Shown piece after piece: positions 21,401-42,400 of a DNA stretch of 43,076 nt. Within the stretch, counting starts at the first letter, position 1. Every line of letters starts with the position of its first letter. A program made the translations under genes and the position numbers. The stretch is from an uncultured Planctomycetales bacterium (GTDB lineage: Bacteria > Omnitrophota > Gorgyraeia > Zapsychrales > JANLHA01), in assembly GCA_964635405.1 (NCBI GenBank), contig CAZWOH010000002.1:1-43076 (forward strand), written 5' to 3'. Below the pieces are notes generated by a model. The model did not search any database. It had not been told where the DNA came from and saw only the letters and a program-made list of their open reading frames with translations.

Positions 21401-24400
21401 CTTTTATGGTGGGCAATTGGTTATTTTAGCTGTTCTCTTTATTTTGGGAATTAGCGGAGTAGCAGTGAGTGAGATAATTCCTGTTTCTATTGTCCTTGCT
21501 ATTCCGGATGCAATTAAACAGATTTTGTTGTTTATTCCGTATTTGATTTTTATTGCGACTTGGCGTTTGAGTTTTTATGCGGCTAACTATTTCTTTATGG
21601 GCATTGCAACCTGGGGATCGCATATTGTTAATAACACGTATGAGCTTAATAACAGAAACAAGCCGGATCAGATTAAAACGGCCTTAAAGAAATTGTTGAC
21701 CGATCCGACGCCAGCGTTATTAACTCGCGAATCTGGTCAAAAAATGCCATCGCGTGGGCATGAACGCGTTGAGGCTTTCAAGATCGTGTTGAGGGAATTA
21801 GGTGGTGATGAGGATTATTACTATTTGATTAGCAAAGAAACAATTGTGGATTTTGAGGAAGGCAAAATTGATATCAATGTTATGGCCGACAGGATTGTCG
21901 ATGAGTTAAGTGGAAAGCTTTATGATCAAAATGATTTAGTAGGTCAGGATGCTAAGACCCAAAATGCCATTATTTCTGCTAAGCGTGAGTGGAGCTTGTT
22001 GCGTTTAATTGAATGGATTAATGATCAATATCGCCTTGATCGAGGGTTAGAGCCGATGAATTGGGACGAAGTTCTGCCCGTAAGTCAGATTATGGAAGCG
22101 GCTGCCGAGGATCTCTTTTATACACCCGAGCAACTTTTGACGTACGACCCTACTGATAAAGACGTTTCTTACATGACCCACCGTTTAGGGATGTTGGCTC
22201 AAGCAAGGACAGAACTCTTTTTGTTGATGATAAAGCGTTTATTGCCAAGTTTGACTATACAAAAAACAAGAGAATTAGTAGAAAAAGATTTTTCGACTGA
22301 AGCTTTAAAACCGATTAAGGCGAGTTTTGATAGATACTTAAGCCAGTTTAACGAAAATGATGAGGCATTTAGAGATTCAGTACGAAAAGAATTGCAAAAG
22401 ATGATCACAGATGGCCAATATTTACCTCTTGCGATTAGTCAAGAAAACAAAGCCGTGCTTTTAAACGCTAAAAAATCATTGGTATCTTTGATGGTTTATT
22501 GGAATATTTGGCCAGAGATTCAACGCTGGGCTACTTTCCAACTCCCAACGATGTGGGCCAATGCTCGTTCTCAGAAACGTACTTTAACGAAATTATATAG
22601 TTATTACGCCCAGATGTTTGGTATGCCTAACGATAAAAGTACTCATGAAGAAGTTGAGAAAAAAATCCGTGTGATTAATAGGCATTTGGGTAGTTTTGCT
22701 GCTATGGATGCAGCATTGGGTGGTAAGCTTCGTGAAGTTATCGATGCTTTAGAGCGGACACATTATAAGGAAACATTTTATGTGGATGAAACAGGGAAAG
22801 TATATGGGTTTGAAGACGCAGTTGAATTCCTTCGTCAAAAGAATTCTGTTTGGGGAGAGATGATGGATCTTGTTAAAAATGATCGAGTTTTTCCAGCCTT
22901 TCATAAAGGTGATGTTCGTGGGAAAGGGGAGATAACCGAGATTTATCATTCAGAAAAATGGAATACCAAGACTGTGGCTATGCCCTATTTTATCGGTCCA
23001 GTTTTGTTGACCGTTGATGCTGATCATCGTGCGAGTTTGGCTGGACAGAATGGGTTTGCAGCTGCTTTGATGGATTTCTTTTATCAGCCCGGTATGGCCG
23101 CTGCGATTCCTGTGGTGCATCAGGATCTTACTAAAGGTGTTGGCCCCTTAGGTGACGTCGTCCCTGTTGGTGAAAATGCATTTTATTTTCATACTCAGCA
23201 GGGCAAAATGTTGTTTGGCGGCTTAGGGGCTTATGGAAAATTCTTTGAGCGCGTCACGCCGATGCGTTGGTCAGAAGGCATCACAGATTCTTACGTTGCT
23301 GAGGATATCGAAACCGTTTTGCGTTATCGAGGGTTTGGTTATACGGTTGGGCGTACTTCATATATCAAAACTGAAAAGGGATGGCCGAATCAGTTTACGC
23401 AGGCTCGTAATCCGACCCGAAAGTGGTCGTATGATTCTGTAGAATCGGTTACTGGCCGCACGCCGCTTAAGCTTTTATTATCACCGTATGTTGATTGGCC
23501 GTATCGTATTAATAATTTTATTCTTGATGGTTTTGGATTTTATTTTAAGAAGCCGATAGTCAATCGCTACATTAAGTGGTTGGTGGTTTTTTCTTTAATC
23601 TTGGACTGGAATTTGTTTAGCGGCCTTGCTCTGGGGCTGTGGGTAGGAGCGTTGTTGTTATCGCAAGCGATTAGTTTTGGGTTGTTATTCTATAATAATT
23701 ATGATCAAGCTTTAGGTTTTTGGCGTGGGTTGTGGCTGACATTTAAAATGGTTTCTGGCAAGATGTATTGGTTTTATTTGTATATGCTTAAAACTTATGA
23801 AGAGACGATTGGTCTTTTGGCGGCAAACCGGTTAGGGAGATTTCTTTCGACCGCAGGGAAGGCAGGAAACATTTTGCGTACCCCGGATTGGCGCGAACTT
23901 TACAAGATTACCTTTTTCTCGCAAAAAGCGGGAGCTCTATGGCTCTTGGTTTCGTTAGTGGCTATTGGCTTTCATCCGTTTAAGAGTGTTTTATGGATAT
24001 TGACCTTACTCTTTCCTTTGGCAGCTTTGATTGCCCCGTATGTTTTTAATCCAGCTCGCCCAGAGGCTAACATACAAAAGAGAATATCGATGCTTGCAGC
24101 TATCCCAGTTTTAGGAATAATTTCTGGCGCAATCCTGTGGGCTGGGTCTTGGGTTCTTGGGCTTGCATGGGTGGAGTTGCTTATTCTATATGTTAGAGTT
24201 AACTTAAAAAATCAAGCGATCACGGTGAATTTCAATAAAGATCGTTGGGAAAATGTTTGGCATATTCTTTTGGGCTTTTTCTGGGGATTAACGGATGTCA
24301 TTATGGCGGCGCATTATAAATTATCTCGTCTCTTCCCTTGGAATCGTAGAGAGGAAGATCGTTTGCAGGCATATATTTGGGAGTATGGCAAGCAAGTTCA

Positions 24401-27400
24401 ACCAAAGCTCTCGAGTGCTATGCAAAAAGAAACTTTGGAAAACTTGAAGTTGTTTGCTCAATACCCAACTCATAATCGCATGATGTATACGCGCGTTCCA
24501 CTTCCGATTGTTTTTCACTCTATTGATATTTTCACTTGGGTGCATGAAGGCTTTGTAAATCGTTTTAAGACCGCAAGTGACAATGAGGAAAAAACTACAG
24601 CCGCCGCAAAGGCCTACGAGCCAATCCTTCAAATCTGGAAGACTTCAGTCAAGCCTCAAAATCAAGCAGTTGATCAATATAAATATAAGTCAGCGCAGAG
24701 CCCTGATGTTGTCGCTTATGTCAAAACTCTCAAGGATAGAGTTATGTATTTGAAGGTTTATTTTGCAGATCTCGCTTTAGCGAAAGAAATGGATAAGAAT
24801 TTTCAGAGAAATATCAATGTTTATCTCCAAGTTCTTAAAGATATTGAGGACGCTTTGCAACAAAAAACGGGGCAATCAGATTCCTTATATCTACGACGGT
24901 TAGAGGAAATTGATTGGGAATTGACAGAGATGTCCTTCTTCCCGCATAAGCCTGTTAAACGTGCTAGCTTAAAGAGCGCAGCTGGGTGGAACACCCTTAA
25001 CGGGATTAAAGTCAATTTAGGTAATGTTGTCAGTAAGATTTGGTTCTCTGTAAAATCAGTTATGAGATTTTCTCGCGATCGCGTTTTACATATGATTGGT
25101 GTCGAGGATACATTTATTGCATTGTTTGTTTATGCTTTCATGGTTCCAATGGCAATTTTGACTGGCGTTTTATCTATTTTAAAGCGGATTTTGGTTGGCT
25201 TAGATCGCGTTTTTCTCAGAGGATTTGCAAGAAAGAAAGTGATAAACATTTGGCATAAACAAGAAGCCACTGGTGCGGCACTTTCTGGTTATCCGGCTTT
25301 GCCAATGTCGAAGCGTATGGCTTTAAATGAAAAACATACGCTTTATAATTTTGGTAAAAGTTTAGGTGGTGAGAAATCTATTAACGAAACGGATGAAAGT
25401 AAGTCGCTGGATTTGATACGTTTACTTCTGGACAATGATAAACTTGAAGAATTTATTAAGTCATCAGCAAACAAAACTTCTACCGCCTCCAGCTCAGCGA
25501 TTGTGGACTTTAAAGAACTCGAAACAGTCCAATGGTCTAAAGAGCATCAACCTAAATCTTCTAGTTCGACACTGGACATAAAAACTTTCCCAATCCTTGT
25601 TTCTGCTATTGCGGGAATGCAGGATAAAAATATTTTGGTGACGGTGACATTGAAAGACGCAACAACTGGCACAGTTGAGATTAAGTTTGATTCTCCGTCA
25701 GAAGAAGACGTTTTAGAAGCTTTACAATATGCTTTTGATCAGCAAAGACAGAACGAAAAAGATATGAAAAATTTAGTGGCTTGGTTCCCAGCGCCTGAGA
25801 AAAAGCTTTTTGGCATGATGACTAAAGCGCCTGTGAGAACTTTTACTCTTCGATTCCATGGCATGGCAGGCAACATCGCTTACGTAAAAGATAATACCAT
25901 TTATGTTTCTCATCATGCTCTACGTGCGCCACCAGTCTGGGAATTTAGCATGGATTACAAACAAGCCCGCCGTAGATTCCTTAACATTATCTTTTCTGAT
26001 GAAATTGAACACCTTCTGTATCCAAACCAAACTCAAGCCACGACTCATCAGCATCTGATTGCCCGCTTGGGAAATAATCAAGACGATGTCATGGCATTGT
26101 ATTATTTCGTGAGCGACATAAATTTTGTTGTTAACAATGAAGATTTGCAGGGTCTTTTAGAAAAAACATCGGCACAAAGATTAGCTAATTATTTGGCTGG
26201 GCAAGGTTTGACTGTATCACAGTTAAAAGCCGGTGGAAAAAATATCAATGATTTAGTCGTTGCCGGCAACGATGATTTAAATACATTAAGAGCTGTTGTC
26301 GAGTTATTTAGCAATGGCGTTGGGCAGAGAATTATTATTCTTGGTGGCTTCGGTCGGTTGACGATATCTTTAGTTAGACGAGCTGTCAAAGCTGGGTATA
26401 GTATCCAATTATCAGCAACAGAACAAATTAATAGTTCAAATTTTGCAGAGTTTGAAAAGCGGGTCATGCGTGCTCCACGAGCCAATGATCTATTAAAAAT
26501 CAGCGAAGCTCAGATTATCAAGCAGATCATGTTTCAAATTATTTCTAAGAATTATCCTGCAGTAATTCAAAGATTCCAAGAGCCAGGCCGTATTGTCATC
26601 GAAGAGTCTTCGACAAATACTCTTGATAATTATAAAAAGTATCATGACTTTCTCGTTGAGGATGCGCGTTTTAAGACACAAACTCAACAAAATCAGCCGT
26701 GGACTATTGTCAACATTAGCCACCCGTTGTTAGAATTTCGTACCCAAGCAACCTATCAAAAGGTTTTTGAGTCACTCATTGCCCAAGGAAAAATCCGCGG
26801 GACATCTTTAGCGCAAGAATATCAAGTTAATGGTTTGGAACGCTCGGTAAGAGAAAGACTTATTGACGAGGTGTTTAGAATTATTATTTATTCACAGCAT
26901 GAGGATATCCGTATTTTATGTGGTGAAAAGAAAGGTTTAAACGCAATTGATGCAGAATATTTTCTGGTGGCAGTGGAGTTATTTAATGGACTCAATGAAG
27001 ATTATGAAAGAAATTTATTAGCTAATCAGCTTGTCGCAGCGTGGGTGACATATCCAGCAAAAGGGCGTTTGTCCGAAGAACAAATGCGCGCAGGTTTATC
27101 ACCTGCTACGTTGGAATTTTTTGAGACGATAGTTGCTTTCTTTGATACAAAAGATCTCTTGAATAAACAACAGGAATCTACCGTCGAAAGAATAGGTCCT
27201 AAAAGTTTTATGGATACCCCAGTTAATGGATCATTTGTTGAAACAATCCCCGTTGACCGGCTAACGAAAGAGTTGGAGGACAGGACAAGGGCTATGCGTT
27301 CACCTGAAAAACTAACAGCTGAGCTGGTTGGGCGTGTCTTAAAGGCTTATAGCAATAATACAGTTTTGGCTGAATGGCATCTTGCCACCTATTTGGTTCA

Positions 27401-30400
27401 AATTCGTGCAAATCGGCATTCTAGCCCAGAACAAAGAGCGGAAGATTATAGAATAGTTCGCAAAGCGATTGCAGATTATAAGCATACCGGAAAGATTGAA
27501 GAATATTCCCGTCCGGATATCCCTGTTTTACGTCGGAACGTTGAAATTTTTGGTGTTCTTTACGGCGATTCGCAGGATGAGGCAGCACTCAACAGGGTTG
27601 CTTTTTTTAATAATCATATTGGAATTCATAGAACGTATGGCGACTTTAAGATAGGTCGCTTTGATTTGAACCCAGAAGCATTTTTGAGAGTTGATGATCA
27701 AGGTGATCTTTACTTCGATATTTTATTTTACAGATCCAAAGAACCATCGAAAAAAGTCATTCTTTCATCCAATGACCCAAATTTGATTGAGCCGGATCTA
27801 AGTGATGTTGATCAAAAAGACGTGAGCAATATCCCGATTTATGAAAGAATTTCTGCAGAAGATGCAGGAAATTCTCTCGCTGAGCCATTCTTGCCGCGGA
27901 TAACTTCAATTTATGGCGCGGGTATTTTAGCTGTCCTTCCTTTTGCACCAACAGAATGTTTAAGTGTATTCGCACAACATATAAGCAATATCATTCACCC
28001 TTCAGAAGAAGATATGGTTAACGTGCTTAGTCGTTTCAAGACAATTCCAATAGATATTGTCGGAGTTTCGACATCAGAATGGACTTTACTGCCCAAAAAA
28101 GCTTATGAATATATTTTCCGTCATCTTAATAAGTTATATGAGGATGATGAAGAAACCGGAAAGCAATATCATTGGTTAGCATGGATACACACCCATCCCT
28201 ATTATTCAAATATAGATCATCAAATAATCGCACCGCTGTTTACATTGCTGGTGAAAACAAAGCTTGCAAAATATCACTATGATAATAGAAATATTTTTCA
28301 ATATATGTCGCCGGGGGACATAGAAAATGCATTAGTATTTCCAAATATGTCAAGGGCTTGGAAGCTTCCAGATATTCTTTTAGGGGAAGTAATTATTTCT
28401 GGAATTCAAGTTATAGATGAGGACTGCAGGGCTATAGGTAAACCCAATTGGCACGATTTTTATATGAAAGACAAGCCCGTGTTGGATGAATTATTAGATT
28501 TTGCCAGCAAAGCAAATAAAGGATTTTCGACTGTCTTTCAAGAAGGTGAAGAAAGGAGGCTCCCTGAGTCGATTTCTATATTTTATGAAACAATGCATCA
28601 TTGGTTGCAAGAGTCTAGAGAAACAGAACGCAAAGGAGAACTGATAATCGTTTCTTCCACCAGCTCTCCTATCACCTCCCAAAACAATACCGCGTCGTCG
28701 GTTATCCCCGCCGCCAGCGCGGCGGTAACGGTTGAGGACGTTGTTTTAAAGCAGCTCTTTGCACTCCGCGGCAATATTCCTTTTGGCTCTAAAGGCCTTG
28801 ATCAGGCAAGAACACCATTAAGTGAGACGGGATTAACTGAATCGGATTTTGAGATTTTTTACCAGCTTGCCTGCGTTCATTATTTGGGCCAACATCGTAA
28901 AGATAAGCCAAAGACGAGTTATCTAGTTCATATTTTAGACGGGCTATTGATCCTTATAAATCTTCTAAAGGTCAGCGATCCCAACGCCATCGCGGCGTTT
29001 TATGTGCACGATACGGGTGAGCGATCTGCATTAAATGAGAATCAAGCGTATCCCACGCCTGAAATGCTGCAAACGGTTGAAGAAGATTTGCGCGAGCGTT
29101 TGGGACAGATTAATGCGCTTGATGTGGAGCTTATTATTAAGTATTGGAAGCTTCTGACCAAGACAAAGGTTAAATTTGTCAAGTTTGACATGGTTCCCTA
29201 TCTTTCAGAGATAGCTCAAGAGGGCGATCTTCTGATCCTCGTCAAATTAGCCGACCGAATACAGAATTTACTCAGCGATCAATATTCCAATAATAGACAA
29301 TTGGTTGAACGCTATATTTGGGAAACCATTGAGTATTTCTTGGAAACGCCATTGACTCCAGCGGGCAAGACGTTTGTCGGAAGCCTGTCAGAACAATGGC
29401 AAGGTGCTGGCAATGCCTTTAGACTTATGTTGATTCAGTCGCTTATCCTCAATTTTAATAAACTTCAGGGGATTCATACACCGGCAGATGTTAAAGACAC
29501 TATTTATAGAATTATTCCACAGATCAATTTAGAGCGCTATGCAACGTATTCTCCGTGTCGATTATTAGATCTCGCCTTAGATGATTTGAAAAATCATAGC
29601 GCTAGCTCGGCGATTGATTCGTCCAAACCGCAATATCAATGGAAATATGGAATTAACCAAATTGGCAGCCACAAGACCGTACAATCTAATATTCTTCGTC
29701 GAGCAGAGACGATGATTGAAGAATTGCAAAAAGTTTCGGTTGCGGGCAGTACGGTTGATCAAAGCTATTTGACAAAGAATATTTTTGGGAATATTAGAAT
29801 TAACGGCAGGGTGGTTGCATTTTGTGGCCACGTTGTGGCAGGCGATTTGATGCGCCAAGACGAAGAAGCTTTAGTAGCTGGCTTTAAACAACAATTAACA
29901 GAATGGTTGTCGAAGTTCTCCGGCGCGCCACCGGGCAGTTTAACACAACAGCTCTTTTCAAATTTTCGTGTTCTTGTTGTTTCCTCCCCCAATGTTTTTT
30001 CAATAATTAAAAATAATTCTAAAAATCCGCAGGTTTCAAGCTCATCTTTGCAAGTTGTAAGTCCTGATCAGTTAGCAGAGTATGGGAAGATTAGGCCCAT
30101 CGAATACAAGCCAGATCCTTCTATCTTAGTTATATTTGATAGTCATTACTGGACTGAAGAGCCGCGTAATCTCTTAGATGAAGAACAAGATATGCTTGAG
30201 AGGTTGATTTTTGGGGACATCTATTTCCAAGGGAAAAATGTTTTTGTCTCTGAAAATTGGGATCTGACTGATGGAGCTTTGATGGCGGTAGCTGGTAATA
30301 GAGCTGTGATTATTAATCGTTTTGTTCTCGATAATTTATTGAAACAGCAAGATTCGTTGTCGGCAGGAGAGTTTGAAGAACTTGTCAGTTTTTATAAAGA

Positions 30401-33400
30401 TATTGTTATCGGTATTCATGTTAACTTGCGTTTTGTATTCTTTGATGAGGAAGAATTGCATGAGGAAATGATCCGTCGGTACATGAAAGATAATAGAGGA
30501 TTAACTATAGCTTTTAAAATCTTGGATCAGCTCAATCAATATAATGTTGTACTTAACAAGAATTTTTTGGAGTCTTTCCAAAGACTTCGTCGGATGCTTC
30601 CACAAGGACAGGAATTAGTAATTTTTTGTCCGAACGTATCGTTACCTAATAACCCAGCTGTGGATTATATGGGAGTTATTTTTCAAGCAAAGTTAGGGCA
30701 TAATTTGCGTGGTGAAAGACAAGTTCCTGTTAAACAACCGATCACTGGTAATGGTTTTAATGGGGATTTAGAGCAAAGGGATCGTTTAGCCGAGACTTTG
30801 TTTGATGCCGTGTCAAGGATTTTGGTCGGCGGGGAAACTCCTTTGGTGTTGTTTGATTTGGATGATACGTTAAGCCATGGGTTTGGCGGACCGCTGCATG
30901 AAGGAATTCTTGACTTGATGCAGCAGTTAGCAGGGACGCATGTTGTTTTTGGTATTAATACGGGTGCGGATTTGCCTTGGGTAAGTCACCGCGTGTTAGA
31001 TTTAACTCAAGAAAAGTTTATTATTCCTGTTCTTATCTTGAGTTCCGGACGTCAAGTATTGATCTGGGATAATCAACGACAAGCTTATCGAGTCTATGAG
31101 GTGGATAAAAAAACCAATAAAGGAAAAAGTACACTTGCGCTCATCAGCAAATTAGGTATTAAAAAACAAAGTGTGATTTATGTAGCTGATTTCCCAGGAT
31201 CGGAGGATAAAAAACAAGCTGGGATTGATGACAGTATGCTTAATCGAGGGTTTGGTCTCATTGTTTCTGTTGGGCCGCGTCATGATTTTAATGTAGAAGA
31301 AAACACAGTGTTAATACAGACCCAAAACTACGGAATAGTAGGGCCGCAGGCAACAGTCGTTTTGATGCAAGTTCTGTCGGATATGTTTCATAGGCCTATG
31401 CCAGCAGTTAAATTGAAGAACGTCGCAAGCAATCTTTCAGCGAGCGGCCGCTTAATTTTTTCTCCAGCGGCTATGTTAGGGGATGAAATAAAAATAAGTA
31501 TCAGCAACGATTCGGATACTATCACAGTGCCGGGTAAGGGTAATCTATCGTTACAAATTACTGATGGTTCCCGCATGGCTTATGCAGGGGTTGAGCGCAA
31601 GGATCCTCAAACCGGTCAGGTCACGTGGGAAAAAATCTATGCGATTCCGATGATTCGTGTTAATGGACATCGTGAATTAGCGATTCGCGATCCACAAATC
31701 AATGTCTGTTTGTTTTTGTCTTACGGATCTTCGGTTGGGCTTCAAAAGCCAAGCTGGCATTCTCGTAGACCTTTGAAGATCGCTCGTGTTGATGAAGTTG
31801 CGAGTAGATATAATTATCAATTTGACAGCTTTACATCTTTTGAAAATTTGTTGTTATCCCTAAATGTTATTCGAGAGATTATGGAAGGTTTATCGAATTT
31901 TGATGGGATTGAACTTATTCAAGGCCGTAGCCGAAGTGTAGTTTTTCGTACGGCCCGAGGAGATTTGATTATAAAAATGTATAGTGCAAAAGATTCTGGT
32001 GATTCTAGATTCGCACGGGATTTGTTATTCGTAACTACTTATAATGCTGCTCAAAATGCTCATCGGCCAACGGGGTATTCAAGTCAAGATCGCTTTTTTG
32101 TCGTGGAAGTGGATACAACTGCTTTAACCTTAGCTGAGTGGATGGCTTCTTTAAGCGATAAAGATCAGTTAAATAAGGCAGTTTTAGCTATAGCTAGCGG
32201 CTTAAGGGATTTTGGTTCTATTAGTTTTTATGAATTTGGAATGATTACTAGCAATGGGCCTAATCCTGACAGTAATGATTTTGTGCAGATGGATGAAACC
32301 CCTCAAACTTACTTCCACTTTGAACGAGAGCTTATACATAGGATTTTAAAAGAGTTAGGAAACATTGGCTTAAAAATGTCTAACCCTTCGCTTTTGGATG
32401 ATTGGCAACAAAGGATATCCACCCTTAATTATTTTGTTTTGAACCACGGAGATTGGAGTCCTTGGAACATTCTTGTTGATCAGGATGGTCGTCTTGTGAC
32501 CGGAATAGATGGTGAAGATATCTTGTCAGCCCCGCCAGAGAGGGATATCGCAATATCATTGATACGTTTGTTTGATACCTCTTTTGATATGCCATTAGTC
32601 AGGGAAAATCTTAATCGATTATGTGAGTCATTATTGGAAGTTTATAATGAAAATCGTCGAATAAATTTTGATGTTCTGCCGTTTTTTCTTGCTTTGGCGG
32701 CCTTGCGAAATGCCAGAGGACAGGGGATTGATTTTCGAAATCAAATACGCGCAAAGTTAATGCTGAGTTTGGCAGAATATTTCCTTAGCTTTTCGACGGT
32801 TGATCGGCGCAATGTTTTTCCTGTAACAGAAGCTGTATTTAGAGTCGCAATATTTGATTCAAATGCCCATGTCCAAATAGCCGGGTCATTTAATAATTGG
32901 AAACCTTCTTCTGTGGATTGGCAACCCGTTACAACTAATACAGGAACATTGGTCGCCTTGGAAGCACGGTTATCTTTAGTCGCAGGAGAGTATGCTTATA
33001 AATTTATTATCGATGGCAGATGGATTGCAGATTCCAGCGCAGGCGAAATAAAAAAAGGCAATATGATTTTAAGATTACCGTTTCCTGCAATAGAAAACGA
33101 GCAGCATCTTGAGACAGATACCGCCTCCAGCGGGGTTCACTATAGGCCAGTTAATTGGGGCATTTTGGTCCGCGATATCCGCGTTATCGGGTTTGATTTG
33201 GACGACACGTTGTATAACTCGAAAATCCTTATGCAGGAGTTTAGGAATTGTATTTTTTATTTTCTGGCTGAACGTTTAAAGACAAATTATACCGATGCCA
33301 AAGAACATTATTATGAAACAAAGAAAAAAGTCGCACAAAAATCAGGAGGACAGCCGCTTGCCATTGAAGTTCTTTATGAACTTGGAGTATCTCTTCAAGA

Positions 33401-36400
33401 GTGGGAAGAGTATTCTGATAAAAAATTTTCTTTTAAGAATTATGTTAGATACGACGAGAACCTGCATAATCTGTTAAGAGAAATCAAGAATTTGGAAATA
33501 AAGATTTTCTTATTAACTAATAATAGCTTGAATCAAACACACGGTATTTTAAATGCTTTAAAAGTTTACGAGTTGTTTGATTTAATTCTGACTAGGACGC
33601 ACGTGCCTCTTAAGCCTAATCCAGAGGGATTTAAAAGAGCGGCAAAACATTTTAAAGTAGAGCCGCATGAAATTCTTTATATGGGAGATAATCTGCGAAA
33701 TGACTCGGATTCTCCGAAGGAGAATGGTAATCGCGCATTAATAGCGATGATAGAAGATTCTAGTATTTATTACGTTTTGGGGATGTTCATAGAACATCGC
33801 AAGCGCAGAGAAGATCCGAATTTCAAGTGGCATTTGGAAGAACTGATGAATCGGGAATCTTCTGCTTCTGGTTCTTCCCCAATTAACCTTGGGTCCGGAC
33901 GAAAGCCGGCGGAGGTTATGCACGCATTGCGCTTATATGAACAAGCTTTTTCTGACGGACAATGGATCGATGCGATGCGCTTGCTTTTTGTTTTTGCTCA
34001 TCTTCCATGGGTTGCGGATAAACCTCTAGCGATTGCTAATCAGATTGCGCAACACATAGCAGATTTACGCAAACAAATTCTCCAAGCCCAATATCCGATT
34101 GAACATGCAGATAAATATGTTTTGCTTCATATTTCTGATAAACATCAAACGATGACGACACGTAACATCAACCAAGCTTTCACGGATCCGCAAGTTTTTA
34201 GTGATCCGGCAAAATTTTCCGCATTGTTTAAAGATCTTCTCGATTTGCGTCGAGAAGTCGCGGATGATTTTAAGCCGCAAGCCACACTCGCTCTTGCGCA
34301 GGCGCGGGAGCTGATTTGGGCGCGCGCGGGGGATGTCGAAACTTTGGTTAGCATGTATTCTGTATATGAAGAAACCGCTCGGGCGCTTTTGTGGAAATAT
34401 TCGCCGATCGATTTGTCAGCAGACCAGCGCGCTTTCCTGACGGTAGCTGCAAAATTCGAAGAAAGCCAGACGATGTTGTCAATAGAGCGGATCTCGGGAG
34501 AGATTGCTTTGTCGCTCAATGATACGCAAAAGATTTGGCATGAAATTCGTGAAATCTTCAGGCGTAACGCTATTGATAAACCACTTAAGGAACTTTTAAA
34601 CGGAATTTGGCAACATGAAGATATGGTTTTGTTTGAAGGAGTTATTTTAGGTGAAATCAAAGATTGGGTTAGAAATAATCGACAGGCTCTTGTCGAATCT
34701 ATTGGAAACGAATTTGTGCTTTTTGATCAGCTTGTTAGACATGTTATCGCAGAGTATAAGACAAAAAATCCCGGACAACGGATGCCGCCGTATAAGGACA
34801 TCGAAGCTCAAGTGGCACAGATCATTTCTCCAGCGGATTTTAGCACTAAGCGCGCGGCGCCGGATAAGAAGCCTATTGTTCTGACTGCTCAATCTGCGTC
34901 GGGAGAAGAGTGGCACTATAAAGTTTTTATCAGTCGGGAAATGGACTCAAATCTTTGGCAGGATAATCAAGCGGTAATTATTTCAAAATTACAAAAATAT
35001 TTGACGATTGCGGCAACAAATGGAAAATGGAATACAGATGATTTTTCTTCGGAGTCTATTTATCAGATTTCTCAGCGCGGAGTAAGAGTTCTTAAGTTCA
35101 GAGAAGGTGCGAAACGTTTTGCTGTGGTTGTCATTAGTGACCCGCAGTTGCTGGCGCAGGGACGGTTTTTTATCAATGCGAGTTTGAGAGATAAACTTAA
35201 AGGTCAGGAATATGAAGATTTTCTTTTGGGTTTGATTAGTAAAGCACAAAAGAACCAAGGTTTTGTGCCAGCGGTAGCCTCCAGCGCGGCGGTGGATTAT
35301 GTCGAGTTACGCGCTAAAGGATTATTGTCGGACCCCGTTGTGGTGAGGGTGGTTTTTGCAAAAGGTCAGTTGACTGTAACGGGATCGAATGGGATGGGAC
35401 AAGATCAAGACGCCGTTGTCGAGGGATTTAAACAACAATTAACAGAATGGTTGTCCAAGTTCTCCGGCGCTCCGCCGCTTTACGGCGAGAAACAGGCGTT
35501 TTTCTTTATTCTGCTTCGTGAGGTTTCCATCCCAGTAATAGTTTCTCCAAAGACAGCTTCATCTGTAGTCACCGCCGTCAAAATGAGCCCGTCGGTCGGC
35601 GAACGTGTCCCCGTTGTCCCGGGACAAGAATTTTTCGTTGACATTGTTGTTCAGACAAACGGTTCTGTTAAACAAAATCAGTTGAGGGTAGAGCTTTTTA
35701 CCAACATGAATCATTCTGGTAGTTGGACTCCGATAGAAGTGAATTTAGAAAATATATCTTTGATTTCAAAAGGCAAGGCGGGGCATTTTTATCATGCGCA
35801 TGTAATTCTTCAAGCACGCCAGCCTGGAAAATTTGCTTTCACCGCCCGGGCAAAAATTTCCGATCAAAAAGAATTCGTTTGGGTAGGTGGGGATGCGACG
35901 GTCAAGGTATCTCTTCTTCCCGATTGGTTTAACCCGGCTACGTTTCATTCGGAGTATACTTATACACCGGACATTGCGAAAGAAGGGTTTGCTGATAATT
36001 TCACCGGCCTGTTAGGCTACATCAAAAGTCAAAAACAAGTTACCCGCAGAAATGCTTTTTTCCTTTCGCCGTTTTTCCCAACGTCGAACGTGTCGCCGTT
36101 TTCTGCCGTGTCTGTTTATGTTCTTAATCCTGCCTTGATTGACTGGTCAGCGGTGGTGGATGCGGGGCAGACTCATCTGGAAAAATCCCATGCCTTTTAT
36201 CAAAGCGCCTCACAAGAAAGAAAAGAGCAGCTAAAGCGTTTTGCCTCTCATCCAGAGGTTGGCAATTACGCGCATCATATTTTGCGCCGGATTCGTACTA
36301 GCAAGTGGGTGATTTATGGTGTTGATTATGACAGTTTAAGTGAGCTGGGCGATCAGGAAATTTATGATTTTATTGTTTATGAAGAGTTTGTTGCTTTGGA

Positions 36401-39400
36401 ACAATTTCGTGTTTTGTTAACGAATTCTGGTGCAAGAATTTTAGGCGATTTGCCGTTTTTCCGTTCTTTGGATGGCACGGATGCTTATTATCATAAGGAA
36501 TATTTTGTGACAGAGCAAGGGCGCATTGTAAGCCCGGGCATTGATAATCAAGTTTGGGGAGATTTAGCAGCGTATGATGAAATTGGTATTGAGAAATGTT
36601 GTTCAGAAGGCCAGATAGATCCAAGGCTTCTTGTGATTATTTATTGGCAGCACATCTTTGAGAGAGTTTTTGATGATCCTGTTCCCAAAATAGCCGGCTG
36701 GCGGCTTGATGCGTTTCATTTTTTTGGGCGTGGTCCTAATGCTCGACGGGTCATTTGGACAAGCCGGCTTTGGGATGATATTGCTTATTATGCACAAAAG
36801 CATAATCTTTTGATGATGACGGAACAATTAGGAGGTGATGACACAGCATATGAAAATCTTAAGAGGTTGGGTTATTGGCAAATGGAAGTTATACGGTCTT
36901 GGGGGAGAGGCAGCACGGTTGAATTTTATTATGGGAGACTATTTGATGCTAGCCGCAAAATTGCTTATACAACGGCCGAAACGCATGATGTACAGCGGTG
37001 GGCGGCAGAATATCTTGAGGACTTTATGCGCTTGGCAAAAACGAACGATAAGGCTCAGGCGCTTGAGCTTTTGGGTCCTGCCTTTTTGGGCTTTTATATT
37101 TTGGGCCCGCGAGCGGAAGCAGTGTTATTAAGTTTGAGTGATATGGCAACTTTAGATCCGATCAAGCGTGAAGTGTATAACGAAAAAGGCATGGTTGTTG
37201 GCTCTCAATGGGGCACAGAAAAGATTGGGTCGGTGGATCTTTCTGAGATGATACGCAGTTGTGTGGATATTAGAGAAAATCATCTTGCGATAAGCCGCTC
37301 TGAAATGATTTATCTTGCGACGGGTGATGTGCACGTGAAGGCTTTTCTTAAGAGATATGAAAGCGATGTTCTTGTGGTCATGGCTAATTTTAGCAATATA
37401 CAGAGACTAGCTCAAATTTCACTTTCAAGTTCGGATTTGGGCTTGGAGTTTCTCAATAGAGATCAGCATTCTGTTGTTGTGCAGATAGAAGATTTGATAA
37501 GTGGGCAGATTTATCCGCCGCAAGACTTGGGATTAGAGAATTGGATAGAATTTAAACCTTTTCTTGTCCCCGGACAGTTGGCGGTGTTTCATATGCAAAA
37601 CAAGTTAACAACCATTGCCGCCTCAGCGGTCAAAGAGGCAACAGCAATTTTTTCCGATAATTCCATACTTTACGAAGCCACACTCCTTAATCAAGTTGTT
37701 TCTTATACCAGAGCTGTTTTAGCCGCAAACGACAATATTCTTGGGACAATGATGTGCTTTGCAGCCTCCTTTTATACTCAAAAAGTAGCTAAAGATTTGA
37801 TAAATGATGACACTAGTATTATTAAAGTACTTAATATTAAACAACTTTTATCATTTCCTACCGCTGCTTCTTTTATGGGACATGCTCTGGTTTTTGTTAT
37901 TTTTAAGGACAGCCAAAGAATATATCTGCTTGACCCAACGATACAGCAATATATTTCTTCGCATGCGGCGTTATTATTAGAACCGCGCAGTGATTTTCAT
38001 GCGAGACTTTATGCGGTCCTTTTGAGCAATGGTTTTGTTCTTTATTCAGGGCATGAAATACAGATTATTGAGATTTATGCGAGAATTATTCGCATGGGTG
38101 TATATGCCAACCCGCAGCAAGTTTCTCGTTTGGTGGAGGATGCTGAAAGTTCGCAAGAACCGGTCTCTTACGACTATCAAAGTTTATTTTTAAATCCTGA
38201 TGTCCAGACGTATTTATCGCTTGTCAAAAATATTTATAATCAATCTTTGAGAGCCGAAGTTCATGGAAAAACTATTCATCAAGCGATGGTGCGAATTTTA
38301 AATAATGCAAAATTATCAGCGCAAGGCAGAGATATTGGCATTTTAGTTGACTTGGCCATCAAAAACGCCAGCGCGCCTGTGACCGGCCCGCCGGCAAGGG
38401 AAATTGTTGGTGCTTTGGCCGCCTCGTTTTTCTTTTTAACGAGCCCCAGTTTTTCTGCATCGTTTTCAAAATCCGTATTGCCAGATTCCGTAGCGCAAAT
38501 CACAGAGTCTCAAAAACAAATCCTTCAAACAGCACTGCCCGGCGTGTTGCCTGCGCTTTCTTTAGCGTTTAAATCGACATCAGATAATAAACCTCAAATG
38601 AGCACAGATTTAGGCCCATTAGTTCTTAATGGCATCGATCCGGATATGTTTAAAAATGTCAGAGAATTGCGCATTATCGCCGCTGGCGGAGGTGGCGATG
38701 TCGATAGCGCGATTCTTCTGGCTTTAGGGTTGCGTCGAATTCTTGGCGAAAATATAAAGATTGTTATTTTTACGACCAACGTCAAACACGCTAAAGAAAA
38801 CCCGATGGGCTGGCCGCTTTCCGTCGGAAATATCATTAATATCAGAACCGGTCAGCCGATTAAGCCTATCCCGGGCACGGAACATTTTTATCGCATTGTC
38901 CCCGGGCTTATTGTTCGAAACGAAATTTTGGATGATACCGACCGACCGTATCACGCACAAGTCCCGCTTTCGGATAGTCAGATGGTTGCTCTTGGGCTTC
39001 CGCAAGGAATTGAACTTCTGATGATCGATGTCAGTCAAAGCGCAAAAGATTTAGCCCAAGATTATTTACGCTCGCAAGGCGATGATGTTAACGCAAAAGA
39101 GCGTGTTCTTATCAGTCTTGATGTCGGCGGGGACAGCCTTGCGCGGTTCCCATACTCAATAACTTCACAGAATAAGCCGACGCATCCGGAGCGGTTTATT
39201 TGCTCGCCGGTGACAGACCTGATTATTTTGAATATGGCACGAGAAATTGAACGCGTTTTAAAAACAAACGTCTTCTGGGCTGTTTCGGCTTTAGGCGGCG
39301 ACGGAGAATCAACGCCGAAGGTGCTTGAGTATATGCGCGAATATTATGCGGAGCAACAGATCGTTGGCGTTTTGGATAATATTCGTTTGTTTAATGAATA

Positions 39401-42400
39401 TATAACCCGTCAAGATGCCCTTGTTTTGTATCAAGCGCTTGCGACGATACCCAGTGAAGTTTCAGGAAACCTTTTAAAACGTCTCTTCGCCATTTCTCGA
39501 CGGCTTGATGAAATTCGTGGATTAGTTGATCGGCAACAAAAGGTAAAACTTGTGCGTTGGGTGATGCGATCGCAATATTCTCAGCAAGGTTTCCATCCTC
39601 AACAAATGTTTGACGCCAATTATATGACACAGGCCCTTGCCCCAACATTGGCAGATTCACTGAGAAATGGGACTCGTCGCGAGTTATTGGCCCGGGCGTA
39701 TCCGTTGACAGTTTTCTTCTGTCCGTCGTCGATTGCGTCAAAAGTTCGCAATCGTGATTTTGGCAACGCTAATTTAAATTGGGAACAAATGGAAAGGGCT
39801 CTGCGGAAATTTGGTTACACGACGGAAGTGTCTGATTCGCAAATGATTCGCGAATTGCAAAAAGAAAAGACTGCTGCAGTTGTCGTTGCCGCCAGTTCGG
39901 TTCTTTTATTAAGAATTTTTGGCGGTAATCAAGAACTTGTTGAGCAATATTTGCAAAATGCCATGGCGACTTTAGATCTAGACAGGCCGCAGGTGGAAAA
40001 CGGAATCTTTGCTCCTTCTTTGGCCGCAGAGAGCCGAAAAGACGCCGATTCCTATATGCAACAGGATTCGGCAGTCGGTCTGTGCTTAGGCGGCGGGACA
40101 GGGATGATTTATCTGATTAATGCACTTCGTGAAGTTTTCCCAAGAGAATATGCAATAAGAGCAGGGCTTGCCGCTATTGATAATGGAGGTTCAAGTCATG
40201 CAATGGCAGAAGGTCTTCAGGCGGCTGGCTTTGGAGTCCCTTATCCTTTCGCGGATCTTCTTAGCCAATTGCAAGCGCTTTCAACTTTGGATAAATCCTA
40301 TCGTATTTTGGATCCGCAGGGCCGCGTGCAAGTAACGACACTAGACTCTAATCTGCCGGAAGTTGACGAAGAAGGTCATGCTCTTAGGGCAGGACAAATT
40401 GTTTTTTATGACGAGAATAATAGCCCTATTTACTTGGAAAATTTTGAGGAACTTATTATTCGTTTACTTGAACGTATCGTCAAAAATTTCTTGCCGAAAC
40501 AACAGTTAAGTGATGATTTTATCTTTTTTGCCATAAGCCTGCTTAATCTTATTGATTTGGTTAAGCCATATATTGAGAAAGGCTATATCAAATTGCCGGG
40601 TTTAAGCATACGAAATCTTTTGCCGATAGCTGTTATGGAATACATGGGGCTTATTGACGTCGATAATCCTAAGTATAAGCAGGGTGCGCGCAAGCTAATT
40701 GTTACTAATCAAAAAGATATGCATCGGCTTGAAAAAGGTCTTGATCTTATCGCGCAGATGATGGGAGTTCGTCAAGGCCGGGTACGGCTTTCGCATCTTT
40801 ATCCCGAGATGGTATATGCGATATATGCGGACTATGTGATTTTAATAGACAATCCAGAAAATCAACAAAAAATTATTCTTTTGGTCCGTCGAGAAAGTAA
40901 AAAATGGCTTGTGCGCGTTTGGGGAGAAGATGCTCAACATTCTGCTAATTTTGCGGGAGAACGTCTTGAAATTTCGTTGACTGACAATTTATCTATATAT
41001 TTTGAGGGCAATTTAAAAGGTTTTATTTTTTCTTTGCAAGCGCAAAATGGGCAGATACAGATATTTCAAGGATCGAAAAAAGCGGTAAGTCTTGTGGTTT
41101 ATAAAAGTAAAAAATATTTGATGTCTGATGACGGAACAGGGAGGCTAAAGCGTCTGGGGGGAAAGGACGCCTCCTATGAAGCTTTAGAAATTAACGGTTA
41201 CAGCGTGTATATTCGCTCCCCGATTATAGTAGGGCAGACGCATATTACAGAGACGGCTAATTATTCCCGTATTGTAGAATTTGGTCTAGCCAGACCCAGA
41301 GGTTCAAACGGTCGAATCACGTATAAACCTGATCCGAAAAGACGCGCGGCAGCTAACAGCGGATTTTTGCAAAGCATACTTTCACCAAATACAAAGTTTA
41401 TAACTTTAGGTCCGGGATCCAGACTTACGAGCAAGAAGATTCATCTTCTTGTCGGCGGCATTTCAGAGGCTTTAGCTGGCCGTTGTAAACGCAGTGATAT
41501 CCCTATTGTTTTATTTTTAGGGCCGACTTTAGATAATGAAAGTTTTGGGGATAGACTTATCATGGTAATTGAGAGGCTGGAAAGAACATTAAGGACGGAT
41601 TTTAATAAAAAACCGATATTTACAGATTTGGTTATTGCTCCTTTGGATACGAGCACGCTCGAATTTGCGTATAGCGTAGTCGGTCCGCAGCCTGTTGGTT
41701 GGTATATCGAGAAATTATTAAACGACGATGACAGTATTAAGCAAGCTGTTATTTCAGATTTAGATTTGCGCTATATACAGATGCTTATCGAAAACTATCG
41801 TGCTCAAGAGCATTTTGGGCAGGCGATTGTGGATATTGATGGCGCAGAGATTTGGTTAGAAGAAGGCTACAGGGCCGTTTCGCTTCGCGATTATCTTACG
41901 TTTAAAATCGCGCAATTTTTAGATTGCGTCAACCAAGAGCCTAAGCCCGAGATACGCCAACCCGGCGATCCTTCCAAGGAAGCCAAAAAGCCGCGCGGTT
42001 CATTTACGCCTTCGCCTGCAGAACTTGTAGAATTTAAAAGACGGTATCCAAATATCCGTGTTTGGACAGATGTTTTTACAACAGGAATTATATTTACGCC
42101 GCCACGCGATCCTCGTCAGCCGCCAGCGCCTAAAATCGGTTACGTTAAACATAATCCAGAGCGTCTGCGAGAACTTTTAAGGCTTCCCGCATCGGAAACG
42201 TCCGTCGCCAGCTCGGGAGTTATTCATAATTTGGCCGCGAATCGTCAAGAGGTCATTGAAACGGCGATCAGTGAGTTTGTCCGCCTTGGCATGGAGTCCG
42301 TCGAAAACACAGATAGCTTTATTGTCCTTCTTCCCGGCGGAAAAACAGCGCGGGATTTTTATTTAGTTTTTGCGGCGCGAGTTAAAGAATTGATGAGTGT

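Follow-up and report, generated by a model that had tools for sequence, protein, structure and literature searches.

A kinase–CBM48–HAD cassette and a GH77-like, probable glucanotransferase module in a giant protein of the Omnitrophota type

Giant proteins with domains for sugar metabolism, HAD_2 domains and glycoside hydrolases arrayed along one chain have been described in Omnitrophota, and GT5 (starch/glycogen synthase-type), GT1 and phosphoglucomutase domains are common and co-occur in them (bioRxiv 10.1101/2023.11.21.568195; bioRxiv 10.64898/2026.06.07.730766). Neither text mentions GH77, CBM48, a glucanotransferase or an APH-type kinase. The stretch of DNA analysed here (the window; 43,076 nt) is a single open reading frame with both ends open and encodes part of a giant multi-domain protein. 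The frame that begins at nt 3 (nt 3–43,076, forward strand, as are all features below) contains 14,358 codons and zero stops, and the remaining five frames contain 595–1,348 stops each. Searches of genome, viral and JGI collections did not retrieve the window itself. The encoded protein of over 14,000 amino acids is closest in kind to the Omnitrophota giant proteins. Like the 'Archaeovorins' (West-Roberts et al. 2023) and the 'multi-enzyme metabolic clusters' (2026), it has several transmembrane clusters in a frame of no fewer than 14,358 codons, in which numerous unrelated enzyme domains lie between unannotated stretches. It likewise contains HAD_2 and glycoside-hydrolase domains together with the peptidoglycan enzyme domains SLT and M23, and the three close relatives of its GH77-like module that are named by NCBI are all Candidatus Omnitrophota MAG proteins. 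On the other hand, the window carries GH77, CBM48 and an APH-type kinase, on which both texts are silent, whereas GT5, GT1, methyltransferase and NUDIX domains were not found by Pfam at E<=0.01 across the whole window. We place the window protein among the giant multi-enzyme proteins already described from Omnitrophota, as a variant of that class. The preliminary description of this DNA had known of no described counterpart, which holds for the GH77, CBM48 and glucanotransferase content but not for the general architecture. Transmembrane-like hydrophobic clusters were detected at residues 166-1047, 6437-6467, 7074-7192, 7860-8062 and 8367-8398, and convincing clusters were absent from the giant frame beyond residue ~8400. 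The region at nt 31840-37600 would therefore form part of the soluble tail of a membrane-anchored multi-enzyme protein, and this tail may be cytoplasmic.

The first module of this region, at nt 31908–32830, is a small-molecule kinase with a predicted APH/choline-kinase fold. Pfam APH matched nt ~32424-32624 above its cut-off (30.6 bits versus 23.2; E 3.7e-7), a match that spans profile positions 165-230 only, and the motifs were read directly: a glycine-rich loop (GRSRSVVF), a Lys codon at 31974, the catalytic loop HGDWSPWN at nt 32445-32468 (Asp at 32451 and Asn at 32466, an intact HGDxxxxN) and an intact Mg-binding IDGED at nt 32505-32519 (Asp at 32508). A single-sequence AlphaFold model of the kinase reached a pLDDT of only 34 and did not confirm the fold. 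The catalytic loop and the Mg-binding Asp are shared with Mak/Pep2, NahK, AmgK and MTR kinase, which act on small molecules, and a sugar context is plausible; similarity specific to any of these families is absent, however. Maltokinases have the APH/MTR-kinase fold and Mak uses a Gln as Mg-binding residue (PMC11046441, section 5.3.4), whereas an Asn occupies this position in the window kinase, which also lacks the Mak N-cap and the TreS fusion. An affinity to maltokinases had been suggested, but the NCBIfam and Pfam maltokinase models gave no match even with thresholds relaxed to E 0.1 and 10, and neither a single-sequence nor a profile search matched the maltokinases in PDB; a Mak/Pep2 identity is thus not supported. 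The sole relative of the kinase, P0036, is weak (17.6 bits), although its alignment extends across both lobes at 26% identity. In P0036 the kinase adjoins NTP_transferase and epimerase domains, a layout that resembles sugar-1-kinase salvage routes, and a GH77 domain is present in the same protein. The window kinase would phosphorylate a small molecule with ATP at the glucan, probably a sugar and possibly at its anomeric position.

Directly fused to the kinase is a CBM48 of the AMPK-beta glycogen-binding type (nt 32835–33090). It was matched by Pfam AMPK1_CBM (28.7 bits versus a cut-off of 26.8; nt ~32865-33038) and, in PDB, by the CBMs of AMPK beta1/beta2 (E 5e-6). The glycan-binding W/K/W residues are conserved, in that the Trp of GSFNNW, the Lys of YKF in YKFIIDGRW and the Trp of DGxW align with those of the AMPK CBMs. 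The domain would most plausibly dock its region of the polypeptide onto an alpha-glucan. It is followed at nt 33177–33731 by a HAD-IA phosphatase with a cap insert, which matched Pfam HAD_2 (71 bits, E 1.7e-19; nt ~33192-33731), NCBIfam TIGR02253 (79 bits) and TIGR01549 (HAD-IA; 48 bits versus a cut-off of 23.3) and, in PDB, 2hoq (PH1655; E 1.5e-7). All four motifs are present: DLDDT with the nucleophile Asp at 33195, the Thr in LLTNNS, the Lys in LKPNP, and GDNLRND within MGDNLRNDSD.

The chain places a CBM48 whose binding residues are conserved next to a kinase and a phosphatase, and in this it recalls both AMPK beta and SEX4 (CBM48 plus phosphatase). Nevertheless, the kinase of AMPK is a Ser/Thr protein kinase rather than an APH-fold enzyme, the phosphatase of SEX4 is of the dual-specificity type rather than a capped HAD-IA, and here kinase, CBM48 and phosphatase all stand on one chain. 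In eukaryotes, phosphoglucans are substrates of CBM-phosphatase pairs, and the CBM48 here lies between kinase and phosphatase, which is consistent with a polymer cycle like that of glucan-water dikinase and SEX4/laforin: phosphate would be placed on glycogen by the kinase and taken off by the HAD enzyme. However, the known glucan kinases have a PPDK-like dikinase fold and the known glucan phosphatases a dual-specificity phosphatase fold, and both folds are absent from the chain. Moreover, an insert of ~100 residues separates HAD motifs I and II at the C1 cap position. C1-capped HAD enzymes typically act on small substrates and not on a phosphorylated polymer, so the insert argues against a phosphoglucan, and the families that it matches best are nucleotidases and phosphatases of small molecules, MupP-like ones among them. 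We therefore regard phosphorylation of the polymer itself as very improbable; the HAD enzyme would probably hydrolyse a small phosphorylated metabolite such as a sugar phosphate or a nucleotide.

An unannotated, possibly helical linker of ~600 residues (~1.8 kb; nt 33732–35549) follows, in which no Pfam, NCBIfam or PDB sequence matches and no similarity to the flanks of relatives were found. Beyond it lies a module for which a confident AlphaFold model was obtained (pLDDT 91.8, pTM 0.90), with three domains: an N-terminal beta-sandwich (nt 35550–35909; model residues 1-120, all-beta, block pLDDT 78-95) that is kept among relatives, a GH77-type (beta/alpha)8 catalytic domain (nt 35922–37319), and an all-beta C-terminal sandwich equivalent to GH13 'domain C' (nt 37332–37619). 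Although a single-sequence PDB search with the module gave only insignificant matches, Pfam Glyco_hydro_77 matched above its cut-off (34.1 bits versus 25, E 1.9e-8; a partial match, best over profile positions 36-99), and the profile of its clade retrieved amylomaltases from PDB at E 1.3e-9. The catalytic codons, Asp at 36708 (Asp12236), Glu at 36822 (Glu12274) and Asp at 36987 (Asp12329), lie in columns that align with the canonical RIDHFRG, IAEDLG and YTGTHDN, and this triad is at least 90% conserved across the clade, whose motifs are SPF..S, GDLPFF, WRLDAFH, EQLG and THD. The Pfam matches, the motifs and the AlphaFold model thus bear out the four modules of the preliminary description, namely an APH-fold kinase with intact HGD...N and IDGED, a CBM48 fused directly to it, a HAD-IA phosphatase with four motifs and a GH77-like enzyme behind a beta-sandwich, down to the exact carboxylate codons; with a CBM48 and a GH77-like enzyme present, the alpha-glucan theme that it proposed is plausible. 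The GH13-type C domain had not been part of that description.

With GH77 amylomaltase and D-enzyme (MalQ; Thermus aquaticus 1CWY) the module shares the clan GH-H barrel, the motifs SPx..S..A.NP, GDLP, R-x-D, E-x-LG and THD, and the aligned triad. It differs in its N-terminal beta-sandwich and in its domain C, which classical GH77 enzymes lack (PMC11046441, section 5.2.3), in a nucleophile motif, RLDA(F/L)H in the clade, with two extra residues as in the GH13 RLDAAKH, in an identity of only 18-22% in the multiple alignment, and in being embedded in a giant protein. By Foldseek, the model matched GH77 structures at 15-18% identity with a target TM-score of up to 0.63, whereas the top matches were three-domain GlgE and TVAII (E 2e-22, TM ~0.55, identity 10-13%). 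The order of N domain, barrel and domain C is that of GlgE (GH13_3) and the neopullulanase-type TVAII, but the conserved regions of the barrel are GH77-like and not GH13. NCBIfam matched the C-terminal domain with the C-termini of TreS and maltodextrin-glucosidase, and the clade profile matched domain C of TreS, GlgE and oligo-1,6-glucosidase (E 2.5e-7 to 5e-6). On the model, the cassette is a three-domain clan GH-H enzyme, with best whole-module structural matches to GlgE/GH13 rather than GH77 that may point to a different donor specificity. Its most likely activity is that of a retaining 4-alpha-glucanotransferase working on chains of glycogen or maltodextrin; in the double displacement, Asp12236 would be the nucleophile, Glu12274 the acid/base and Asp12329 the transition-state stabiliser.

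An exhaustive HMMER search among 1.84 billion representatives yielded nine relatives of this module at E<=1e-30, all in proteins or fragments of 692-5183 residues and three of them the NCBI-named Omnitrophota MAG proteins; the clade of the module is thus rare. A GH133 glucosidase region follows the module on the same polypeptide in six close relatives (P0005-P0010): four of these have both GDE_N and GDE_C, the fragment P0007 has only GDE_N, and P0010 has only GDE_C. GDE_N and/or GDE_C also lie downstream of GH77 in the remoter P0025, P0031, P0032 and P0040. This fusion to an amylo-1,6-glucosidase supports the view that the module takes part in glycogen debranching as a 4-alpha-glucanotransferase. 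The closest stand-alone relatives would act as indirect debranching enzymes in the style of eukaryotic GDE/AGL, sharing its transferase-plus-glucosidase logic (P0005-P0010), although GDE/AGL carries a GH13_25 transferase instead of a GH77-like one and no GH133 domain was found anywhere in the 43-kb window.

These data also bear on a GlgE-type route on one polypeptide, in which a maltokinase would produce maltose-1-phosphate, the three-domain transferase would take this as donor, as GlgE does, and extend an alpha-glucan, and the HAD enzyme would trim surplus sugar phosphate. The fold shared with maltokinases, the CBM48 adjoining the kinase, the GlgE structures at the top of the Foldseek matches and the similarity of the C domain to GlgE_C and TreS are compatible with such a route. 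It is nonetheless doubtful, since the kinase lacks maltokinase matches and the Gln ligand, the barrel is GH77 rather than GH13_3 in motifs and profile matches, the GH133 fusions point to degradation or remodelling, TreS was not found in the window, and kinase and transferase are not co-conserved. Indeed, the flanks of ten relatives of the GH77-like module, hundreds to thousands of residues long, share no other module of the window. By sequence comparison with these relatives, then, the kinase-CBM48-HAD-GH77 chain is not conserved and the GH77-like module recurs alone. With this, and with the small substrates favoured by a capped HAD, the cycle of phosphorylation, dephosphorylation and transfer that had been proposed is not supported.

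The recurrence of the module alone, beside HATPase_c and HD in another giant frame (L001) and beside REC in P0008, would also fit a plain concatenation of functionally unrelated enzymes, with the CBM48 as a general anchor only and the kinase and HAD enzyme acting on non-glucan substrates such as cell-wall sugars (GlcNAc, MurNAc), nucleotides or a regulatory target. The SLT and M23 domains on the same frame, the amino-sugar-salvage-like surroundings of the P0036 kinase, and the nucleotidases and MupP-like phosphatases among the best HAD matches agree with this. Concatenation alone is nevertheless rather unlikely, given the retained glycan-binding residues of the CBM48 and its direct fusion to the kinase, the GH77 domain that P0036 carries along with a kinase of this type, and the common co-occurrence of sugar-metabolism domains (GT5, GT1, phosphoglucomutase) in the published giant proteins. 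With moderate confidence, we favour a giant Omnitrophota-type multi-enzyme protein in which a glucanotransferase cassette would act on an alpha-glucan and a kinase-CBM48-HAD cassette, perhaps coupled to it, would dock onto the glucan and act on small molecules. The giant protein would thus consist of self-contained enzyme cassettes joined by unannotated linkers.

The modules analyzed here are encoded by a single forward frame that spans the window (nt 3–43076). This frame comprises 14,358 codons with zero stops, whereas the five remaining frames contain 595–1,348 stops each, and no start or stop codon was found within it; the modules therefore sit in part of a giant gene that extends past the window on either side. 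An artefactual ORF was ruled out by the length of the open frame, given that each of the other frames has stops by the hundred. GC skew was positive in all 2 kb bins of the window (0.06–0.23). Pfam scans assigned at least nine distinct families to the ORF, and four of them, APH, AMPK1_CBM, HAD_2 and Glyco_hydro_77, were found where the preliminary description had placed them. The translation also bore out the motifs that it had quoted and contains HGDWSPWN and IDGED in the kinase, GSFNNW and YKFIIDGRW in the CBM48, all four HAD motifs (DLDDT, LLTNNS, LKPNP, and MGDNLRNDSD), and the three carboxylates of the GH77-like module (Asp at nt 36708, Glu at nt 36822, and Asp at nt 36987).

The GH77-like module consists of an N-terminal beta-sandwich (nt 35550–35909), a barrel (nt 35922–37319), and a C-terminal beta-sandwich (nt 37332–37619). 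Glyco_hydro_77 (PF02446, clan GH-H) matched it with 34.1 bits (cut-off 25, E 1.9e-8), the best stretch covering profile positions 36–99 only. When a profile of the clade was used, the barrel half matched PDB amylomaltases at E 1.3e-9, and the C-terminal ~100 residues matched TreS, GlgE, and oligo-1,6-glucosidase at E 2.5e-7 to 5e-6. In an alignment that included 12 canonical GH77 proteins, D12236, E12274, and D12329, the residues encoded at the three carboxylate positions, fell in the columns of RIDHFRG, IAEDLG, and YTGTHDN and were at least 90% conserved. The nucleophile motif of the clade, RLDA(F/L)H, is two residues longer than that of GH77 and resembles the RLDAAKH of GH13. AlphaFold, run on a 24-sequence alignment that did not include the metagenomic relative L001, gave a confident model (pLDDT 91.8, pTM 0.90), in which an N-terminal beta-sandwich (residues 1–120 of the module) precedes a (beta/alpha)8 barrel carrying inserts and a second beta-sandwich at the C-terminus (~595–690). 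In Foldseek searches with this model, the best E-values were those of three-domain GH13 enzymes, namely GlgE (2e-22) and TVAII/neopullulanase; GH77 amylomaltases were retrieved at E 4e-16 with the highest identity (15–18%) and the highest target TM-score (GH77 range 0.59–0.63). Classical GH77 enzymes are described as being without a beta-sandwich domain C (PMC11046441, section 5.2.3), whereas the C-terminal beta-sandwich of the module matches domain C of GH13; the module thus sets a catalytic domain of the GH77 type in a three-domain frame of the GH13 type. On the reading that we judge most likely, the module, whose clade is rare and whose catalytic residues are intact, would be catalytically competent as a retaining transferase of alpha-1,4-glucans.

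Relatives of the module were scarce. An exhaustive HMMER search with a two-sequence profile against 1.84 billion representative proteins gave 52 matches at E ≤ 0.001 and nine at E ≤ 1e-30, proteins or fragments of 692–5,183 residues, and canonical GH77 enzymes (450–550 residues) appeared in it only at E 1e-8 to 1e-3. A word-indexed homologue search with the module retrieved one protein (P0001), a scan of JGI metagenomes retrieved one good relative (L001) and one marginal relative (L002) but not the window itself, peptide patterns and an exact 41-mer found no match among GTDB representative genomes, and a viral contig collection yielded none either. When the whole window protein was compared with all retrieved relatives by BLASTP, the only common region was residues ~11850–12540 (nt 35550–37610). 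The kinase, the CBM48, the HAD phosphatase, and the linker had no counterpart in the relatives despite hundreds to thousands of flanking residues on each side, and phmmer gave the same result. The idea of the chain as a conserved operon-like unit was thus ruled out, since only one module is common to the relatives. At NCBI, three close relatives (P0005, P0008, P0010) and two more distant ones (P0013, P0031) are named as Candidatus Omnitrophota MAG proteins, and relatives at a greater distance again belong to Auribacterota and Poribacteria. It is from these relatives that the window protein is assigned, by inference, to Omnitrophota.

In six of the relatives (P0005–P0010), the module is followed, after a gap of ~230 to 570 residues, by GDE_N and/or GDE_C, the domains of GH133 amylo-alpha-1,6-glucosidase; of these, P0006 (2,046 aa) and P0010 (5,183 aa) are encoded by genes that are complete and lie on long contigs. 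Four remoter proteins (P0025, P0031, P0032, and P0040) likewise carry a GH77-GH133 fusion. Proteins with such fusions, GH77 or GH77-like, range from 1,089 to 5,183 residues, and those with an organism name belong to Omnitrophota and Auribacterota MAGs. Two loci are recorded for the fusion relatives, L003 10001–16141 and L004 5070–20621. Within the window, neither a Pfam match to GDE_N or GDE_C nor similarity to the GDE parts of the relatives was found, and the gene extends past the window. The eukaryotic glycogen debranching enzyme pairs a transferase with a glucosidase (PMC11046441, section 3.4.4), the same logic as in the fusion relatives. This recurrent fusion is noteworthy: it is a putative bacterial counterpart of the debranching-enzyme architecture of eukaryotes, and it offers the best functional clue to the module, which would be a 4-alpha-glucanotransferase acting on glycogen. 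The searchable literature contained no description of GH77-GH133 fusions or of glycogen debranching in Omnitrophota, an absence that is no proof of novelty.

Other relatives show the module in different surroundings. On L001 (JGI contig Ga0172371_10000459, 62 kb), a second giant ORF (2–22054, +) stays open through at least 7,351 codons and encodes HEAT repeats, an inositol monophosphatase, a response-regulator receiver, HATPase_c, the GH77-like module, HD domains, and a weak RelA/SpoT region; the module is flanked there by HATPase_c and HD, and no GH133 lies close to it. A nucleophile motif of the RLDAFH type occurs in two stand-alone proteins of ~500–540 aa, P0020 and P0038. The former also has a C domain like GlgE_C, and two fragmentary members of its cluster are Poribacteria MAG proteins by NCBI name. 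Both may be free-standing members of the same lineage intermediate between GH77 and GH13. A broader reading, which we put forward only tentatively, is that GH77 catalytic regions combined with GH13-like N- and C-terminal beta-sandwiches and an RLDAxH motif define an unrecognised lineage of clan GH-H. Omnitrophota and neighbouring phyla would have joined this lineage to GH133, giving a convergent, eukaryote-style glycogen debranching enzyme, and within giant proteins its companions would be a sugar kinase docked on glycogen by CBM48 and a sugar-phosphate phosphatase, together making up a membrane-tethered glycogen-processing assembly on a single polypeptide.

The putative APH-fold kinase (nt 31908–32830, +) was recognized through its catalytic loop. 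The Pfam APH match (PF01636, nt ~32424–32624, cut-off 23.2 bits) rose from 27.9 bits in an initial scan to 30.6 bits (E 3.7e-7) when the domain was searched by itself, and covered profile positions 165–230 only. The segment from HGDWSPWN to IDGED, with 19 residues from Asp to Asp, aligns with the catalytic loop of APH(3'), and a candidate G-loop and ATP-binding Lys (GRSRSVVF...LIIKMY) were found in the N-lobe. A single-sequence AlphaFold model of the kinase with the CBM48 had a pLDDT of 33.8. In sequence terms the kinase is nearly an orphan: a word-indexed homologue search gave zero matches with the kinase alone and only CBM48-repeat proteins with the kinase-CBM48-HAD segment, and a PDB search with the single kinase sequence gave nothing relevant. 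A two-sequence kinase profile matched only the APH(3') catalytic loop in the PDB (E 0.06), and Pfam and NCBIfam together returned the generic APH family alone, over the catalytic loop.

The preliminary description had linked the kinase to the maltokinases of the GlgE pathway (Mak/Pep2). No maltokinase model or chain (Mak N-cap or TreS-fused) was matched in NCBIfam at E ≤ 0.1, in Pfam at E ≤ 10, or in the PDB by single sequence or profile. The Mg ligand in the catalytic loop of Mak is Gln310 (PMC11046441, section 5.3.4), whereas the window kinase has Asn, and this kinship was not borne out. A GlgE/maltokinase route assembled on one polypeptide has some structural appeal because GlgE gave the top Foldseek matches to the GH77-like module, but these results for the kinase and the GH133 fusions of the relatives are at odds with it, and we consider it improbable. 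Pfam scans of the window detected no TreS or GH13_3 domain. Among the proteins retrieved, one weak relative of the kinase was found in P0036 (L005 6001–11463), a complete protein of 1,820 residues with GH77, NTP_transferase, kinase-like, and NAD-dependent epimerase domains. Its residues ~800–1140 align to the kinase across both lobes with 26% identity, and the two have in common the candidate G-loop region with the N-lobe Lys, GD(W/Y)xPxN, (I/V)DGE, and APxE(R/K)D(I/L)A..LIRL, with QGD in P0036 where the window kinase has HGD. The domain layout of P0036 is similar to that of salvage routes pairing a sugar-1-kinase with a nucleotidyltransferase, and by this analogy we lean slightly toward the window kinase being a sugar kinase, possibly anomeric. 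A gene neighbouring P0036 carries the phage domain Sipho_Gp157, and the contig may therefore be viral or prophage.

Directly downstream of the kinase, the CBM48 (nt 32835–33090, +) matched AMPK1_CBM (PF16561, nt ~32865–33038) with 28.7 bits (cut-off 26.8) and the modules of AMPK beta1/beta2 at E ~5e-6. Three residues that contact glucan in AMPK beta, namely the FNNW Trp, the YKF Lys, and the DGxW Trp, are conserved. The HAD-IA phosphatase (nt 33177–33731, +) matched HAD_2 (PF13419, nt ~33192–33731) with 71 bits (E 1.7e-19) and TIGR01549 (HAD-IA) with 48.2 bits (cut-off 23.3), and its best matches were small-molecule HAD-IA enzymes: PH1655 (2hoq), TIGR02253, pyrimidine 5'-nucleotidase, and phosphoglycolate phosphatase. 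Motifs I and II are separated by ~100 residues, the position of a C1 cap, which in the HAD superfamily points to a small substrate rather than a polymer. The reaction cycle proposed in the preliminary description, in which one membrane-bound protein would phosphorylate, dephosphorylate, and transfer an alpha-glucan, is speculative, and phosphorylation and dephosphorylation of the polymer itself is very improbable, given the folds involved and the capped HAD. We instead regard it as probable that the tail of this Omnitrophota-type giant protein carries self-contained cassettes. One would be the GH77-like transferase; in the other, the CBM48 would dock the neighbouring kinase and phosphatase onto alpha-glucan, and both enzymes would take small molecules as substrates, probably sugars and sugar phosphates. 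That the region is simply a bag of unrelated enzymes appears unlikely to us.

Giant multi-enzyme proteins of the Archaeovorin type were taken here to be 7,000 aa or longer, with transmembrane segments and numerous enzyme domains, and the ORF displays each of these features. Crude hydropathy detected five transmembrane-like clusters (residues 166–1047, 6437–6467, 7074–7192, 7860–8062, and 8367–8398) and no convincing cluster past residue 8400, which places the stretch from the kinase to the GH77-like module in a long soluble tail. An SLT lytic transglycosylase (46 bits) and a Peptidase_M23 match just below its cut-off (27.0 versus 28.7 bits) were found at nt ~7794–8670 (+). These peptidoglycan-cleaving modules are in a long segment between transmembrane clusters that may be exposed to the periplasm or exterior, across the membrane from the metabolic tail. 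Sub-threshold Pfam matches were a 23-residue Glyco_hydro_2_C stretch (nt ~6462–6530, +) and an SBP_bac_3-like stretch (nt ~22008–22420, +). DUF1152 (nt ~39006–39476, +, 35 bits), a weak CofD/YvcK-like stretch (nt ~41352–41480, +, 17 bits), and a 6-phosphogluconolactonase/NagB-like domain (nt ~42543–42908, +, 28.6 bits) are candidates for further sugar-phosphate modules of the same tail. Two regions gave zero Pfam, NCBIfam, or PDB matches, one of over 2,000 residues ahead of the kinase (nt ~25200–31800, +) and the other the ~600-residue linker between the HAD and the GH77-like module (nt 33732–35549, +); both may hold unrecognised domains. The one complete ORF of 150 aa or more listed for the window (nt 34145–34660, −; 171 aa, TTG start) runs antisense within the linker region and most probably arose by chance on the strand opposite the giant gene.

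Giant Omnitrophota proteins with glycosyl hydrolase, peptidase, HAD_2, and glycogen-synthase-like domains have been reported (10.1101/2023.11.21.568195), as have "multi-enzyme metabolic clusters" that include a sugar-metabolism module and are interpreted as anchored in the inner membrane with their enzymes in the cytoplasm (10.64898/2026.06.07.730766), and the window protein matches both. The preliminary description's statement that the arrangement has no described counterpart thus holds only in part: giant multi-enzyme proteins with sugar metabolism are published, and neither text mentions GH77, CBM48, or a glucanotransferase. Such proteins as a class and each individual family are already known, and the window protein is not a new kind of system. 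As far as established, the new elements are a GH77-type enzyme with GH13-type N- and C-terminal domains, the confinement of its clade to large proteins of Omnitrophota and neighbouring lineages, and the fusion of an APH kinase, a CBM48, and a HAD phosphatase in one chain. For carbohydrate enzymology, its GH77 barrel and GH13-type domain C make the module a candidate intermediate of the two families, and the GH133 fusion in its relatives would parallel, in bacteria, the debranching enzyme of eukaryotes. The giant proteins of Omnitrophota, whose function is still guesswork, gain concrete enzyme cassettes: a glycogen-binding module joined to a kinase and a phosphatase, and a probable glucanotransferase.
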